Assembly: GCA_965226885.1 (NCBI GenBank)
Contig: CBDDEL010000010.1
Coordinates: 192,001 to 256,000 of the forward strand
Direction: 5' to 3'
From: Opitutales bacterium
GTDB lineage: Bacteria; Verrucomicrobiota; Verrucomicrobiia; Opitutales; UBA2987
DNA length: 64,000 nt
Each line of letters opens with the position of its first letter. The first letter of the stretch is position 1. Made by a program: the position numbers and the translations under genes. Positions 2,885 to 10,239 of this stretch are shown one piece after another. The notes beneath the pieces were generated by a model that was given only the letters and a program-made list of their open reading frames with translations, was not told the DNA's origin and searched no databases.

Positions 2885-4701
2885 GAGGCTGTCCCAAAAG
2901 GGTGATTTTTGCGAGGGCTTTTGATAGGCGCTCATTTTAGAGGTATTTGCATTTGGGAGAGTATCAACTTTGCTCTCCTATGACGTTAGGATACTGGTTT
3001 TGGGGTCCGGTTGCCTGGTTTTCTTTGTATGAGCCGACAGTACGGCTGTGAAAAAGTATTGTCCTTGCTTTTCCGCTCTCTAGGCCGCCGCTTTGGTTTT
3101 TAGTTCGTCTTGCTGGGCCAGCATCTTGGCTACTTTCCATAGGTTGTGCGAGAGTACCGACCAGGCTACGCTGATCGAGCGGTTGGCAAAGCCTTTGCTG
3201 CGCAACCGCCCGGCCTGCCAGCGATTCTTCAATACCCCGATCCGCCCTTCGGTGCTGGCCCGGCGCTTTTGCAATTGTCTGAACAGTGGTTCCTCCATCC
3301 GTTTTTTCAACTGCTTCGGATCGCGTGGACAGAGCGCGTCGTAGATTCCCTCCTGGGCTAACTCCCAGCGGGCCCGCTGGGAGGCAAATCCCCGGTCCGC
3401 GCACATGGCCGCTATGGGTTCTTCCAGGTTGAAGCGGTTCTGTCTTTGCAAACTCTCTTGCATTTGTTCATTTTCGCTTGGAGTTCGGCTGCCGTAGAGT
3501 TTCCAGTCCAGCAGGTACCCTTCAACGCTTTCTCCCAAAAACAGGGTGTTGCCGAACTCGACCTCTTGGCCCGCTTTACCTCGCACAATCACCTGCCCAT
3601 CGAGTTCGTAAACACTCAAGACTTTCTCTGCGTTTTTCACCTGGCGGCCGCCAATGATCCGCTCGTGCGCCTGTTTGATGACCACCGGGATTTGCTCGCT
3701 CATGCGCTCCATCCGGGCGAGGATCTGTTGGACCTGTTTTTCGCTGTAATCGCTTTGCTCCCAGCAGGCTTGCAATAATTCCCGGTGACTGCGGGCATGC
3801 TCCCCGATCCGTTTGAGCAGCTTTTTCATCTGCCTCAAGATACCCTTGCGCTGCCGCGCGCTGTCCTTTCGCCGCCGGCTGTGGGTCATCTGTATGCACA
3901 GCCGATTCATCTGCCGAGCCAAGGGCTCCGGTTCGATCGGCATGCGATGGCGCAAACCGGCCTTCTCGCGGATCAGCCGGATCGCTTTGAGCAACGTGCC
4001 GGCTACATCCTTGAGTAATACCCAGTCCGTCGGCCAATGAATGTTAGCCTCCAAACAGGTGCCGTCGATCAGGCAAATGGTGGGGTCAATCGGCTTGTCC
4101 AATCCCACCTGCCGGGCCAGAAGGGCATCGCCCACCACCTCAGTCAAGGTCCGGTGCAAGGCCCTCAACTGCTCTTCGCTGAAAAACTTCGAGGCCCGCT
4201 CCAGGGTGCTTTTGGAGATGCCCCTGATGCCATCGATCTGCCGGACACGGCAAAAGTCGGCCAACAGATCGCTGCTGCCCAGAGCCCGCGACAAATGCCG
4301 AAACGAAATCCCTCCGAGCAGACGGCCCAGCGTATCCATGCGCAGTGCCTTGATGGCAAAACTGGCCCGCTGCCGCCGGGCCTTTAGACCCATTGGCGGC
4401 CACCCCTCCAAGGCCAGCTCAATGGCCTGCGATTCCACCTCCGAGTCGATCAGCAGCCGATCGATTCGATCAATGGTGGCGCGGAAGTTATCGTAATCGA
4501 GGCACCGGTCGACCACAGTTAAAGCTGGACGCAGGAGGCATTGGATGGCTATATTTTTCATAGAAAGGGCTATATTGATTTTCGCTAACTCAATTATAGA
4601 ACCCTTTTTTGGCCGGATCGAGCAAAAACTTGCTCTTTCCGGCTCTTTTTATCAACGTCATCCAGTTGACTATAAAATCTTTATATTTTTGGGACAGCCT
4701 C
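2885..4701 (-). mobile_element. IS5-like/ISNCY DDE insertion sequence, 1817 bp
   Basis: Perfect 15-bp terminal IR GAGGCTGTCCCAAAA (2885-2899 / 4687-4701), flanked by 7-bp direct repeat TAATCTA (2878-2884, 4702-4708). Confidence 0.9.
3080..4561 (-). CDS. DDE transposase (IS5-like/ISNCY)
   Basis: 493 aa with IDGTCLEANIHWPTD, GKAGQEVEFG, ADRGF and RRASTEGRIG motifs. Confidence 0.88.
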   Translation of the reverse strand: MKNIAIQCLLRPALTVVDRCLDYDNFRATIDRIDRLLIDSEVESQAIELALEGWPPMGLKARRQRASFAIKALRMDTLGRLLGGISFRHLSRALGSSDLLADFCRVRQIDGIRGISKSTLERASKFFSEEQLRALHRTLTEVVGDALLARQVGLDKPIDPTICLIDGTCLEANIHWPTDWVLLKDVAGTLLKAIRLIREKAGLRHRMPIEPEPLARQMNRLCIQMTHSRRRKDSARQRKGILRQMKKLLKRIGEHARSHRELLQACWEQSDYSEKQVQQILARMERMSEQIPVVIKQAHERIIGGRQVKNAEKVLSVYELDGQVIVRGKAGQEVEFGNTLFLGESVEGYLLDWKLYGSRTPSENEQMQESLQRQNRFNLEEPIAAMCADRGFASQRARWELAQEGIYDALCPRDPKQLKKRMEEPLFRQLQKRRASTEGRIGVLKNRWQAGRLRSKGFANRSISVAWSVLSHNLWKVAKMLAQQDELKTKAAA

Positions 4702-4748
4702 TAATCTACAAATTACTATAGAGTAAACTCGATATTGGAGGCATCATC

Positions 4749-5144
4749 ATGGAAGTTGAAAGAATCATCGCGATAGTATTTTCCCACCTTATGTTTATCC
4801 TCGGGTTGTCCGAACTCATTCAGGCCAAAACCTGGACCCGCTATACTGAAGAATTTCTCAAGTCCGAGCATTTCGCCATCATACTGACCCTTACCTGGCT
4901 GCCCTTCGGACTAGTCATTGTCAACGGACACAACATCTGGGTCATGGGGCCGCCTGTCATTATCACAATTTTGGGCTGGGTAATGGTGATAAAATGCGCT
5001 CTCTACCTGCTGGTTCCACAAGCCATGCTCGGCCTGGCCAAAAAAATGAGGCCAGCCTACCCAACATTATTCAGAATTTCCGGCGTGGGTCAGATCATTT
5101 TTGGAACTTTCGTCATGCTCGACACCTACAATCGATACGGCTGA
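4749..5144 (+). CDS. Small hypothetical 4-TM membrane protein
   Basis: 131-aa hydrophobic ORF preceded by a GGAGG RBS. Confidence 0.75.
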   Translation: MEVERIIAIVFSHLMFILGLSELIQAKTWTRYTEEFLKSEHFAIILTLTWLPFGLVIVNGHNIWVMGPPVIITILGWVMVIKCALYLLVPQAMLGLAKKMRPAYPTLFRISGVGQIIFGTFVMLDTYNRYG

Positions 5145-5167
5145 AATTAAGCGATTCAGCCTTTATT
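5139..5167. terminator. Hairpin between convergent genes, possible terminator
   Basis: GGCTGAA(5139-5145)...TTCAGCC(5155-5161) followed by TTTATT. Overlaps both stop codons. Confidence 0.35.
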
Positions 5168-6433
5168 AAAATGCATTCCGATGGCAACGGTTATGGTTTC
5201 GCATACGAATCCGCAAAAAAGCGCTGCTACTCCGATTGTAGCGCCGGACAATCCAGTGTATGGCAACAATATTAAAGCGAGCAATATCGCGATAATCCGG
5301 GAGGGTCCGCTTGGGGCCAGGAATTTTGTTTGGCGTTTCTTTAGCGCGACGCCGTGAAAATAAGATCGGGTGGCAACCACGATGGGGAATAAGGCAAAAA
5401 TGATTAACGGCATCATACAGCCATCTACAATATTGCCACTTAATGCCATCAAATCTATGAGGATGAATTCCCTAACCGGGGTCCAAAAGGCAAGGGCCAT
5501 TGAGCTGAATGAAATCAGTCCGCATAGACAGATGAATTTTTTGATTTGCGACAAACTGTTGGGCTCATTTTTAAAAGCGGAGGCCAAACTGCGAAGCTCG
5601 TTCAGCCACCCATAAGGAATATGACCGAGGGAATAAACAACGGCTAGGACAGCCATCGCTTCAACCCCGTCCGGCCCGCGGGAAATAAAGAGATTGACCG
5701 TTGGCCGGCTGATTCCTTGAACGCTCATGGTCAAAGCCAAGGGCCAAAAAAAGCGCAAGATATAGCCATAGGAAAGTTTCCTTTCCGCTTCCATAAAGAG
5801 CTGTTTTGGTGAAAATCGAAGATTGCCAAGATACGTTACTATAAGATGTGAACAAGCGCCCGTATAAGTTGCCAGGATCGGCAGATGTATCGGGTTATTC
5901 CGTATAAATTCGACTTTAAGCGATATGAGCACGGTTAGAATGCTGACCCCAATTCCGATAAACGTTGCCAGAGCAGTAACCTCAGTGCGATGAGCGCGAA
6001 GGAGTAAACCGGAATAAAAACGGATCAACCCCTCAATAAACGGGTAGGGGATGAAACATAGAAAAACATACCGTATGATTGAGGTCAGGCCGACATCCAG
6101 CCGATGTAAATTTTGGATAAACAGGACGCCCAGAGGAGTAAGCGCCAAAAGGGCCAGAACAGCCCCCATGAGGCAGCAGCCGATCAAAACAAAGTTTAGA
6201 ATTTTCCCTTTTGATTGATGATTTGAACCGAGGACCAAAACGAGCTGGTTCAACTGGCCAAAAGGACTGATAATGAACGCAGTTAGTATCCAGGCAATTC
6301 CAAAACCGGCCAGCGTTTGGGCCGCATTCGGCAAGCGCGCCATGCCGCTATTAACAATCGGTCCCCCCAATTCATAAATCACCAATGTTAGAAATAACGG
6401 AAATATAAAGCGTGTGAAACGACTGTAGAGCAT
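5156..6433 (-). CDS. ANKH-family (MOP/MATE superfamily) membrane exporter homolog
   Basis: About 12 hydrophobic segments. Motifs FFWPLAL..QGISRPTVNLFISR, GHIPYGWLNELR, IKKF...FWTP, LAPSGPSRII and LPYTGLSGATIGV closely parallel the vertebrate ANK sequence as recalled. Confidence 0.8.
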   Translation of the reverse strand: MLYSRFTRFIFPLFLTLVIYELGGPIVNSGMARLPNAAQTLAGFGIAWILTAFIISPFGQLNQLVLVLGSNHQSKGKILNFVLIGCCLMGAVLALLALTPLGVLFIQNLHRLDVGLTSIIRYVFLCFIPYPFIEGLIRFYSGLLLRAHRTEVTALATFIGIGVSILTVLISLKVEFIRNNPIHLPILATYTGACSHLIVTYLGNLRFSPKQLFMEAERKLSYGYILRFFWPLALTMSVQGISRPTVNLFISRGPDGVEAMAVLAVVYSLGHIPYGWLNELRSLASAFKNEPNSLSQIKKFICLCGLISFSSMALAFWTPVREFILIDLMALSGNIVDGCMMPLIIFALFPIVVATRSYFHGVALKKRQTKFLAPSGPSRIIAILLALILLPYTGLSGATIGVAALFCGFVCETITVAIGMHFNKG

Positions 6434-6525
6434 TTCAAATCAATTGCTCACATTTCCTTAAACCAACGTTTACATGCATTTACTGTTGTATTGTCTGGTT
6501 GGTTCGATTTCACCTAAAAATTTAG

Positions 6526-9500
6526 TCATGCGACTTCTTCGGCGGAACCGGTATCTTTGTTGAAGCGCATGGATACAAGTTTGGAGATGCCTTTTTCCTG
6601 CATGGTTACTCCGTAAATGCTGTCGGCAGATGCGATGGTGCGCTTGTTGTGCGTTATGATAATGAACTGGGAGTATTTGGTGAAATTCTGCAGCATGGCC
6701 ACAAAGCGCCCGATGTTGGCGTCGTCGAGAGGCGCATCAAGTTCGTCGAGCATGCAAAAGGGGCTTGGCTTTACCATGTAAATGGCAAATAGAAGGGCCA
6801 CCGCAGTCATCGTTTTCTGGCCGCCGCTGAGTAAGGCTAATGTTTTTAAGCGGGTGCCGGGCGGACGGGCGATAATGTCGATGCCGGATTCCAGAACATC
6901 CTCTTTATCGATTAATTGGAGGTCGGCATAACCGCCCCCGAAAAGAGCGTCGAAGGTATAGGCGAAATTTTTCCGCACCTGGGCAAAGGTATCTTCAAAT
7001 AAACTCTGCGAGGTTTGGTTGATTTTGTCGATCGCCTCCAGCAATTGATCTTTTGACTTCCACAAATCGTCGCTTTGTTCCTTTAAAAATTCGTGCCGTT
7101 CTTTTAATTCCCGATACTCCTCGATCGCTATCAGGTTGACCGGCCCCATCGAAGCGAGTCTCCCGCGTAGGACCTCGACCTCCTTCGTAATTTCATTCCA
7201 ATCGGTGTCATCCAAAGCTTGCAGATCTTCCGTGGAGGGCTCGGCCAACTGCTTTTCTTCCTCCACTTTTTCCAGTGCGTCGGCCTCGTCCAGATCCAGC
7301 CGAACGCGCTGACGGGCCAGTTCACCGGCCTGCCAAAGTTCGTTTTTCCAGTCGACGTTAGGCAGTTCGACCTGATACTCGCGGCGCGCCTCATCGAGCA
7401 AAAAAGAAATCTCGGAATTTTCACGAGCCAGGCGAACTTCATGGCGGTTCAAGGCGCCCTCAGCTGCCCGGTGCTCCTCCCGCTGCAATGCGAGGGCTTC
7501 CTCCCCGGTCTTGATTTCATTTTCCGCCGCAAAATAGGTGAGCCGATTTTTCTCTAACGACTCTTTGGCCGCGTCAAGGGTTTTTTCGATTTCATGGACT
7601 TTGGCCGCCTCATCTTCGGACGTTTTTTCAAGGGCGGCGATCTGCTCTCCAAGAGTGTCGATCTCCTGCTCCCGGCTGATCTTCAATTGCGACAGCTCTG
7701 CGGACTGGCTTTCTATTTCTCCCAAATCACGGTCGATCAGCGCCAATCGCTGCCGCAATTCGGCCACTTCCAAACGGGCTTCGGCGAGACTCTCCCGTTT
7801 TTGGTCGCGTTTCTCCCGAAGTTTTTCCACATCGCTTTCCCCCGTGGTGATTTTCTCCCGCAGGCCGTCGATCTGTGCTTCGCCGCCGGCCAACTCCTTT
7901 TGCGCTTTTTCCAGCCTACTTTGAGAATCGTCCCGATGACGTTCCAGGGCAACCAGTTCTTTCTCCGAAAACTGCGATTTTCGCTTATTTTCCTCGATGT
8001 TTTCGATCGTATTTTTCTCCTGGGCCTGGGCGGCGGAAATTTCCTGAATTGTTTCCATCAACCGGGAGCGGTGGATTTCCACGGCCTCTTCGTCCTTTTC
8101 CAGTTTTTCCAGCGCCTTGTCGGATTTGAGGCGCAAACCCTCCAGCTTTTTCTCTTCTTTGTTTTCCGCTTTTTTCAATTTGGCCAATTCCGCCTTGCGT
8201 TGGAGGTAGGTAGCCGATTCGGCCCGCTTATGTCCGCCATAGACAAGCCCCCGGCGATCGACAAGCTGGCCGCTCTTGGTGGCTGCCAGGAGAAAAGGGA
8301 AGTTCGGGTTTTTACTCCAAAAAGCGAGGAAATCGCCCAGGTTGTCGCAAAAATAGCAGTCCGTAAAAAGACTGTCTGCCAGCGGGCCATCGGAGTTGTT
8401 TTTGGTTTTAACAACCGATCCCGCCGGAATCAGCCAGGAGGGTAGTTTTCCCCTCCCTTTTTGTTCTCGCGGGGCCGGTGGGGCCGTGGGAGCGATTTGC
8501 AGGCAGGCCCGCCCCAGTTTGCGCGATTCCAGCGCTTCCGTTACCGGGACCGCTTTCCCCGAATCGCCAAGCACGATGGTATCCACCGCCGGCCCCAGCA
8601 AGGCAACCAGAGCTTCCGTATAATCGCTCTCCACATTCAGGTTTTTGCTCAGTAGATGAAATGCATCTTCAGGCAGCAGACCGTCCAATTTCCCCTGCAA
8701 TATGGCTTTGGCGCCCTCGCTGAAGCCCTCCAGTTTTTCCTGCAGATCGTGAAGGATGTTTATCCGGGCCGAAATGCCGGCCAATCCACGATCCGCCTCC
8801 TGGATTTCTCCCTGTAATTCCCGAAATTTTTCCTGGGCGACAGCCGCATTTTCCCGCAGTTTTTCCAACTGCGAGTTTTCCTTTTCCCTGTCCTTTTTTC
8901 GTTTTTTAAGAACGGCCTGGATTTCCCCGGATTCTTTTTCCAGCAAGAGGCTTTCCTCCTTCAAACGATAAACTTCTTCGCTCAGGTTGGCGTGGCGCAC
9001 CTGGTAGGTTTTCATATCTACCTCCAGGGTCGTGCAGTTGGAACGCAGGCGGGTGAGGCCGCTCTCGGCCATTAGCAAATCCTGCTTGCATTGCTGTAGC
9101 TCTGCCTCTGACTGGCTGAGCCTTTCCTGCGACTGCATCAGCTCGTTATTGCGCTCCTTGAAGACGTCGTCGGAACTTCCCAATACACTGGCCTGGTCCT
9201 CCCTCTGGCGATTGTCCCCCACAGCCCGTTGGGCCAGGTTTTTTTTGCGTTCGGCTATGTTGGCCAGTTCCTTTTCCAGTTCGACAATGCGGTCCTGCAA
9301 ATCCTTGGCCCGCAAAAGGGCAAATTCTGACTGGTTCTGGGCCTGCTCCCTTTTCGAGGAAAGATTGAAAACGGTCTGCTGCGTCTCCTGCAAGTCATCA
9401 TAGAGGGCGCTCCGCCGGTCCTTTTTTTCAGCCAATTCCTTTTCCCTCCCCTCCATATTGGTGCCGAGAGCTTGCGCTTTTTTACGAAGACCGGCGGCCT

Positions 9501-10239
9501 CCGTCTCCAAACCGGTGATGGACTCGTTCAAACCGCTGTATTTGCGGGCTCCCGAGGCCAGATCGAGGTGAGTCAGGCGGCTTTTGAACCGCTGGTAGCG
9601 CAATGCCTTGGAAGCCTGCCGTTTGAGGGAGCCGATTTGCCGGGAAATCTCCTCCATGACATCGGTCACACGAGCCAGGTTGGTATCGACCAGGGCCAGC
9701 TTGTTGAGGGCCTCGCGCCGCTGGGCCTTGTATTTGGAAATACCGGCGGCCTCCTCGAAAATGGTGCGCCGTTCGGCCGGATTGGTGGAAAGAATCTGGT
9801 CGATTTGCCCCTGCAGCATGAAAGAGTAGGAAACCTGCCCTATGCCCGTATCGAGGAAAAGACGCTGGATGTCTTTCAGGCGGCAGTTCTTACCGTTGAG
9901 GTAATAATCGCTGCCGCCATCGCGCGTCACCCGGCGCTTGATTTCGACTTCGTTGAAGGCGGTGCCCAGTTCCGCCTCGCAATCGGAAAAAACCAGGGAA
10001 ACCTCGCTCAGGTTGACCGGTTTGCGCGCGTCGGTTCCCTGAAAAATGACATCCTGCATGCTGCCTGCCCGCAAGGATTTGGCGCTCTGCTCTCCCAGCA
10101 CCCAGCGGATGGCCTCGGCGATATTGCTCTTGCCGCAGCCATTGGGCCCCACGATGGCGGTCACCCCATCGTCCAAGGAGATCCTCGTGGTATCGGCGAA
10201 GCTCTTAAAGCCGTTTAAGCGAATGTCCTTTAAATACAT
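6526..10239 (-). CDS. smc: Chromosome segregation protein SMC
   Basis: 1237 aa. N-terminal GFKSF, Walker [10 protein letters not shown], long coiled coils with hinge, signature LSGGQ, Walker [11 protein letters not shown]. Confidence 0.97.

Follow-up and report, generated by a model that had tools for sequence, protein, structure and literature searches.

ANKH is a human disease gene, associated with craniometaphyseal dysplasia, chondrocalcinosis and ankylosis, and in animals its product regulates pyrophosphate, citrate and tissue mineralisation. The family is represented in Pfam by PF07260, which corresponds to TCDB 2.A.66.9 and, in animals, to SLC62 (ANKH/ANK being SLC62A1), and it lies within the MOP superfamily of MATE-fold transporters. 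Its substrates were revised as late as 2020: in that study, human ANKH exports citrate, succinate, malate and nucleoside triphosphates (PMC7371198). Neither 'bacteria' nor 'prokaryot' occurs in the same paper or in a 2026 ANKH review, and we found no paper on bacterial ANKH homologs in the open literature, subscription journals and the TCDB and InterPro pages being beyond the search. Bacterial PF07260 proteins are already in public collections, where one source names some of them 'progressive ankylosis protein'. We analysed a 64,000-nucleotide stretch of an Opitutales bacterium (assembly GCA_965226885.1, contig CBDDEL010000010.1, positions 192,001 to 256,000 of the forward strand), hereafter the window, in which one gene encodes a protein, P0001, that we assign with near certainty to the ANKH family.

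Membership of the ANKH family

The gene and its most conserved parts lie at the following window positions:

5156..6433, minus strand: ANKH-family transporter gene P0001, described by its open reading frame (ORF), Pfam PF07260, the sturgeon ANKHB alignment, an AlphaFold model and the ratio of nonsynonymous to synonymous substitution rates (dN/dS)
5678..5752, minus strand: residues 228–252, the WPLAL block with Q239, S242-R243-P244, N247 and R252; the most conserved block, in the seventh long helix (222–251)
5591..5626, minus strand: residues 270–281, GHIPYGWLNELR, in the eighth long helix (256–286); W276 is invariant and the motif is also present in fish ANKHB
5195..5266, minus strand: residues 390–413, a turn and the last helix (397–421); A398 and E412 are invariant

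The reading frame was intact from its ATG start and encoded 425 amino acids. The stop-to-stop frame around it (427 amino acids) extended just two codons beyond the called ORF, and the N-terminus was flush with those of its relatives in the alignment. P0001 matched the Pfam ANKH profile at 141.3 bits (cut-off 22, E = 6.1e-41), with residues 3–318 covering profile positions 10–344 of 344, and a profile search at genome level returned this match at 142.9 bits as the one copy in the genome. No second Pfam family was found for P0001 at E ≤ 1, with MatE (PF01554, Pfam cut-off 24.9 bits), MurJ and Polysacc_synt all lacking a match, and no NCBIfam model matched it.

The likeness to animal ANKH was much greater than chance would produce. 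By BLASTP, P0001 and sturgeon ANKHB (XP_033914531.1, P0270) were identical at 148 of 438 positions (34%; 52% positives, 224 bits, E = 2e-72), and residues 3–419 of the bacterial protein were collinear with residues 10–447 of the fish protein. WPLAL, SRP..NLF, PYGWL, IKKF, FWTP, LAPS and the last-helix block occurred in sturgeon ANKHB in the same order as in P0001. When 1.84 billion cluster representatives were searched with phmmer, 1122 matched at E ≤ 0.001 (532 at 1e-10 and 72 at 1e-30); a sponge ANKH ranked 16th of the 1122 (E = 1e-63) and the fish ANKHB cluster 20th (E = 7e-59). Cluster look-ups gave 11 animal proteins (sponge, cnidarian, brachiopod, two bryozoans, crinoid, sea star, hemichordate, amphioxus and fish ANKHB among their sources) and two choanoflagellate proteins. 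PF07260 scores were 730 bits for the fish protein, 223–308 for the invertebrates and 167–169 for the choanoflagellates, against 141 for P0001.

Conservation was assessed across 22 sequences, 13 bacterial and 9 holozoan. The residues invariant in all 22 were N28, A42, L144, P231, S242, R243, P244, A261, W276, P319, P342, R356, A398 and E412, and at least 90% conservation was seen for R252, R379, H110, W230, L232 and N247, as well as for G397, G401, L405, G408 and F409 of the last-helix block. E412 was the sole invariant acidic residue. Helices 7, 10, 11 and 12 thus hold the conserved charges, which are arginines (three or four) and a single glutamate; this pattern fits a carrier of anions, not one of cationic drugs. 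L232 aligned with L244 of fish ANKHB, in fish numbering that may not equal the human one; in the 2020 substrate paper, human L244S is an inactive ANKH control (PMC7371198).

An AlphaFold2 model of P0001, built on 38 homologs, had a mean predicted local distance difference test score (pLDDT) of 89.9 and a predicted template modelling score (pTM) of 0.87. As read from its predicted helices, the protein would consist of 12 long helices forming two six-helix bundles around a central cleft. Foldseek matched the model to 56 PDB chains at E ≤ 0.001, and all 42 of those listed were MATE, MurJ or Wzx proteins. Outward-open states were the best matches, with template modelling (TM) scores of 0.75–0.77 to MATE transporters and outward-facing MurJ at 13–16% identity; scores were 0.73–0.76 to the E. 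coli and Thermosipho MurJ and 0.64–0.68 to WzxE. A sequence search of our PDB copy with P0001 gave no match at E ≤ 1. We found no ANKH structure in that copy, in which neither fish ANKHB nor a 22-sequence family profile had a match (profile E ≤ 1).

These results support part of what had been proposed for this protein from its sequence. The original prediction had placed it with ANKH and not with generic MATE pumps, and the two profiles separated cleanly (141 bits to ANKH, no MatE match at E ≤ 1). It had described the protein as collinear with human ANKH over its whole length, and the sturgeon alignment showed such collinearity with a vertebrate ANKHB at 34% identity over 438 columns; it had also described it as a member of the MOP/MATE superfamily, in keeping with the MATE/MurJ fold that Foldseek recognised in the AlphaFold model. 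All six motifs that it had picked out in the 425-residue protein were present, at residues 228–252, 270–281, 296–300, 316–319, 372–381 and 390–413.

Relatives and origin

A word-indexed search listed 120 homologs, every one of which (120/120) carried PF07260. Three were close, at 85%, 89% and 70% identity, and all others among the 120 listed were at most 51% identical. In a search of one genome per species, 138 stretches encoded relatives of P0001; among the best 80 of these 138, 32 were from Latescibacterota, 24 from Chloroflexota, 13 from Gemmatimonadota and one from Verrucomicrobiota, with 10 lacking a phylum in the title. The single Verrucomicrobiota relative among the best 80 was an Opitutales metagenome-assembled genome, at 69% identity. 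Strong ANKH matches were found in five of the eight other genomes of the query's family (40 relatives searched), and the 32 other families of the order gave just two weak matches (E = 1.6e-8 and 2.4e-4). ANKH was not found at E ≤ 1e-20 in 200 other high-quality genomes sampled evenly across the phylum. Only 5 of 90 full-length relatives matched MatE, each below the cut-off.

Outside bacteria the range seen was narrow. The ESM Atlas search gave bacterial clusters only, and a word-indexed search with choanoflagellate ANKH gave eight matches and no further named eukaryotes. Animals and choanoflagellates were the only named eukaryotes carrying ANKH here, and the bacterial spread was wide but patchy, a pattern that allows a test of whether the animal gene came from bacteria. 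A 2024 paper on ankh evolution reports that it identified no invertebrate Ankh in Ensembl (PMC11417794), whereas NCBI records name ANKH homologs in sponge, cnidarian, brachiopod, bryozoans, echinoderms, hemichordate and amphioxus. Three long homologs, P0149 (1136 amino acids), P0153 (1018) and P0161 (848), carried the ANKH-like part in their C-terminal 260–430 residues (residues 675–1106 in P0149) and may be domain fusions or merged gene models.

Two trees, a quick one of 71 rows and a careful one of 49 (IQ-TREE, LG+C20+F+G4 with posterior mean site frequencies, PMSF), agreed with each other; the 22 rows left out of the latter had long branches, closely duplicated other rows or belonged to the distant groups, which were thinned. 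A clade of 40 rows, here called "ANKH-proper" (support 100/99), included P0001 and 11 named animal and choanoflagellate proteins. A eukaryotic clade of 17 rows (95/93) held all 11 of these named rows and six further rows, and the sponge protein was basal within animals, as species relationships predict. P0001 fell in a five-row clade of its own Opitutales-like family (98/96), and the other bacterial lineages of ANKH-proper branched as a comb of unresolved order. Outside ANKH-proper lay three bacterial groups at a greater distance, two of them including proteins titled Planctomycetota or Phycisphaerae.

The nearest kin of P0001 were therefore bacterial: its own family, then Chloroflexota, Latescibacterota and Gemmatimonadota. 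Judging by the trees, the bacterial branch appears to be the closest known relative of animal ANKH, and P0001 itself appears no nearer to animals than the other bacterial members. The proposal that this gene is a close relative of the animal family was supported, as P0001 falls in a clade with animal ANKH, set apart from the distant bacterial groups at 100/99. The further suggestion that it was a transfer partner with animals was not supported, since its nearest relatives are bacterial and the eukaryotic rows form a clade of their own (95/93); nothing pointed to a recent exchange with animals.

In approximately unbiased (AU) tests, a clade uniting the query's family with the eukaryotes was not rejected (p = 0.359), nor was a single clade of all ANKH-proper bacteria (p = 0.39), and both directions of transfer between bacteria and eukaryotes stay compatible with these results. 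That the outgroups are bacterial and that so few kinds of eukaryote were seen to carry the gene would speak for transfer out of bacteria into the line leading to animals. A fuller scenario, to which we give only tentative credence, is that animal ANKH derives from a bacterial transporter gained by a unicellular forebear that animals share with choanoflagellates, that bacterial members still release polyanions (citrate, nucleotides), and that P0001 is a direct model of the animal protein. If the bacterial origin and the kept function were true, the compact, tail-less P0001 would offer a prokaryotic model for a disease gene that lacks a solved structure.

Five environmental or transcriptome proteins (P0140, P0142, P0160, P0171 and P0184) fell within the animal–choanoflagellate clade or branched at its base; P0160 was on contigs of up to 53 kb, and P0184 came from a marine eukaryote transcriptome set. 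Their source organisms could date the eukaryotic gain of ANKH. We do not call the eukaryotic range strictly holozoan, because P0139 and P0184 are from eukaryote transcriptome collections.

Proposed transport function

We favour, with moderate confidence in the explanation as a whole, a bacterial ANKH-family carrier that exports small anions. Acting in the inner membrane, P0001 would alternate between inward-open and outward-open states, and small, multiply charged organic anions from the cytoplasm would leave the cell through it. Arginines R243, R356 and R379, plus R252 at a helix end, would hold the substrate, E412 may be a site of proton coupling, and the inside-negative membrane potential would favour the exit of anions. 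To our knowledge, all characterised members of the superfamily export or flip their substrates outward; this direction, together with the membrane potential, led us to choose export of small polyanionic metabolites. Animal ANKH would suggest, by analogy, tri- or dicarboxylates such as citrate, or nucleotides, as the candidate cargo. We lean slightly towards export of some small anionic metabolite by P0001, and regard citrate or a nucleotide as its specific substrate as doubtful.

The gene neighbourhoods of homologs in other bacteria may hint at what the bacterial family transports. They were counted at 76 loci of 88 (the gene caller missed ANKH in 12); many loci are close kin, and the counts are not independent. 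Two arrays recurred in Latescibacterota, Gemmatimonadota and Chloroflexota (L010-L088; e.g. L030:4361-10220, L024 and L065). Array A runs amidohydrolase, ANKH, thiamine pyrophosphate (TPP) enzyme and GFO/IDH/MocA oxidoreductase. Its TPP enzyme matched NCBIfam PRK06154 at 736 bits (cut-off 607), and the TPP gene directly adjoined the ANKH homolog on the same strand in 26 of the 76 loci. Array B runs pyridoxal phosphate (PLP) enzyme, ANKH and a convergent class-V aminotransferase, accompanied by a gluconolactonase-like gene and a sodium:solute symporter. The PLP enzyme belonged to the CuyA/1-aminocyclopropane-1-carboxylate (ACC) deaminase/D-cysteine desulfhydrase group and was nearest to D-cysteate sulfo-lyase CuyA (362 bits, cut-off 450).

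In a sister genus of the query's family (L003, L005 and L006), a gene for a PhyH-type dioxygenase lay directly upstream of ANKH on the same strand. Its nearest NCBIfam models were ectoine hydroxylase and methylphosphonate hydroxylase, both matched far below their cut-offs. No glycosyltransferase or cell-wall genes occurred in the 14 largest neighbour clusters of the 76 loci. The arrays are small-molecule pathways and not glycan assembly, which argues against a flippase and leaves a different anion substrate possible.

Several observations weigh against the favoured explanation. We found no transport evidence for bacterial ANKH members in the open literature searched. The fold matches MurJ and WzxE about as well as it matches MATE carriers, the neighbours of the query gene (smc, a small membrane protein and an insertion sequence) give no clue to the substrate, and the genes around ANKH in other phyla suggest catabolism of an amino-acid-like or sulfonate-like kind, not citrate. 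P0001 has P25 where at least 90% of its relatives carry Q, and that the conserved arginines would line the cleft is a reading of their helices in the model. As to the history of the gene, the 200-genome phylum set is a sample, so that "not found" holds for the genomes searched, and the low GC content at third codon positions (GC3) described below could come from weak codon bias and not from foreign origin.

The arrays bear most directly on the possibility that P0001 exports another small catabolic anion or zwitterion (such as an amino-acid derivative, a sulfonate or sulfite), in which case citrate and ATP would be cargo peculiar to animals. Their recurrence around homologs in three phyla and the PhyH-type dioxygenase directly upstream in the sister genus both point this way. 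However, the array-bearing relatives are only 40–48% identical to P0001 and none of those genes flanks it, the CuyA-like match is below its cut-off, close-kin loci inflate the apparent independence of the counts, and adjacency is silent on the direction of transport; we consider this alternative possible but unlikely. The same neighbourhoods, with no glycosyltransferase or cell-wall genes in their 14 largest clusters, make it improbable that P0001 flips a lipid-linked (polyprenyl-diphosphate) glycan or other lipid, as MurJ, Wzx and Rft1 do. That reading would account for the TM scores to MurJ (0.73–0.76) and WzxE (0.64–0.68), for the conserved arginines in helices 7, 10 and 11 (MurJ, Wzx and Rft1 also use conserved arginines), for the label 'Protein RFT1 homolog' that one source gives a Monosiga homolog, and for weak Polysacc_synt matches in two distant relatives. 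Yet P0001 itself has no MurJ or Polysacc_synt Pfam match at E ≤ 1 and is only 14–16% identical to those chains, and animal ANKH, the closest of its relatives to have been characterised, transports soluble anions (PMC7371198).

The fold comparison would also suit an ordinary MATE pump, sodium- or proton-coupled, for cationic drugs and toxins, as the top Foldseek matches were the multidrug MATEs human MATE1, Aq_128, VcmN and NorM. We think this highly improbable: P0001 has no MatE match and the five matches among 90 relatives are all below the cut-off, the 22-member profile finds no PDB chain at E ≤ 1, MATEs included, and the conserved charges are mostly arginines with a single glutamate. Least credible of all, and hardly worth entertaining, is the idea that the gene came recently from an animal host or that animal DNA contaminates the assembly, despite a sponge protein being the best-scoring eukaryotic match and the composition being atypical. 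The observations contradict it: the gene is uninterrupted and sits between smc and bacterial genes on a contig of 430 kb, it has syntenic bacterial orthologs at 69–86% identity, and in the tree P0001 stands among bacteria, with the named eukaryotes in a separate clade.

With 34% identity to the animal protein and common invariant arginines and glutamate in 425 amino acids, P0001 lends itself to over-expression, to transport assays and to structural work, and, as the PDB copy searched holds no ANKH structure, it makes a useful model for the family.

The locus and its likeness to known systems

The neighbours of the ANKH-family gene in the window are as follows:

6526..10239, minus strand: smc, upstream of and co-directional with the ANKH-family gene; SMC_N (244 bits) and SMC_hinge
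6434..6525, no strand: 92-bp spacer from the smc stop to the ANKH start; no minus-strand terminator-like site
4749..5144, plus strand: gene for a small hydrophobic membrane protein of 131 amino acids, convergent, with its stop 11 bp from the ANKH stop
2900..4703, minus strand: copy of a highly multiplied insertion sequence, which bounds the conserved block on the left; left end unmapped

From the sequence of the spacer, read-through from smc into the ANKH-family gene is possible. Between positions 4400 and 6900 there were 8 promoter-like sites (3.9 ± 2.0 expected) and 5 terminator-like sites (3.1 ± 1.8 expected), none convincingly placed. The order of smc, ANKH and the convergent 131-residue gene was kept in two genomes of the same genus, G004 (86% identity) and G002 (69%). 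The 131-residue protein had a single weak DUF2065 match, below the cut-off, and its gene was present in three of four same-genus genomes at 63–81% identity, including G001. In G001 (93% complete) this gene had neither ANKH nor smc adjacent to it (L091, G001:C43:44674-48066) and no ANKH match was found anywhere in the genome; the spot is one of rearrangement or loss. An obligate partnership of the 131-residue protein with ANKH was rejected, given that G001 has the gene without ANKH.

The insertion sequence carried a transposase ORF (3080-4561, minus strand) with weak DDE_Tnp_1 matches. By blastn it had 240 matches genome-wide, totalling 301,899 bases or 5.5% of the 5.48-Mb genome; 109 were at least 1750 bp long, and of these 93 were at least 98% identical. 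The query genome (5.48 Mb) was larger than those of its four genus mates (3.4–4.3 Mb).

The composition of the ANKH-family gene set it apart from its neighbour. It had been described as visibly richer in AT than the upstream smc, and the values agree: GC was 0.467 against 0.543, and GC3 0.505 against 0.654. Among 2369 ORFs of at least 300 amino acids in the 5.48-Mb genome, it stood at the 2.6th percentile of GC and the 3.6th of GC3. Its GC3 was the lowest among the 37 most hydrophobic ORFs of the genome, so hydrophobic codon content alone is insufficient to explain the composition. The low GC3 was common to the G004 and G002 orthologs (0.52 and 0.49, against 0.63 and 0.61 for their smc); in the sister genus, by contrast, ANKH resembled its neighbours in composition. 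A recent import into the query genome alone was ruled out by the synteny and the low GC3 in G004 and G002. The dN/dS ratio was 0.20, 0.14 and 0.17 in three pairs of same-genus orthologs, and the gene is maintained by purifying selection.

The rarity of ANKH in the phylum (0/200) and the low GC3 suggest an older transfer between bacteria, and an ancestor of the Opitutales-like family probably acquired the gene from a different phylum of bacteria. After its acquisition it would have descended vertically with smc within the genus, with occasional loss and under purifying selection. For the bacterium itself it is an ordinary accessory transporter gene.

Set beside transporters of known structure, P0001 shares with MATE proteins (human MATE1, 9r1f; Aq_128, 6z70; VcmN, 6ids) the twelve-helix, V-shaped fold at TM scores of 0.75–0.77, but it differs from them in sequence, with 13–16% identity, no MatE match and no sequence or profile match to PDB chains. 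Barley MATE HvAACT1 (9l7l), which we take to be a citrate exporter, was among the MATE-fold likenesses of the model. MurJ and WzxE have the fold in common with P0001 (TM 0.64–0.76), and MurJ depends on conserved basic residues; in contrast to these flippases, P0001 matches no Pfam or NCBIfam family of theirs and has no cell-envelope gene context. The ANKH-family proteins of Chloroflexota (Caldilineaceae, Litorilinea, Anaerolineae), Latescibacterota and Gemmatimonadota are nearer, being 37–49% identical over their full length, with PF07260 and within a common clade, whereas P0001 belongs to the separate verrucomicrobial five-row clade (98/96) and lacks their metabolic neighbours.

Animal ANKH is the closest described system, and P0001 differs from it in its C-terminal end, in a loop and in P25, where relatives have Q. 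The animal proteins have a tail of about 40–110 residues past the last helix, whereas P0001 stops four residues after its last predicted helix; this cytoplasmic C-terminal tail is a feature of the animal branch that lies outside the Pfam model. They also have 9–14 extra residues between helices 8 and 9, a loop insertion missing from P0001. Anion export by P0001 is proposed by analogy with the animal protein, and mineralisation is irrelevant to the bacterial setting. In the membrane core, the two proteins have PF07260 in common and are collinear at 34% identity, with conserved blocks in helices 7, 8, 9 and 11–12; N28, R243, W276, R356 and E412 are invariant in both, and both belong to one clade in the tree.

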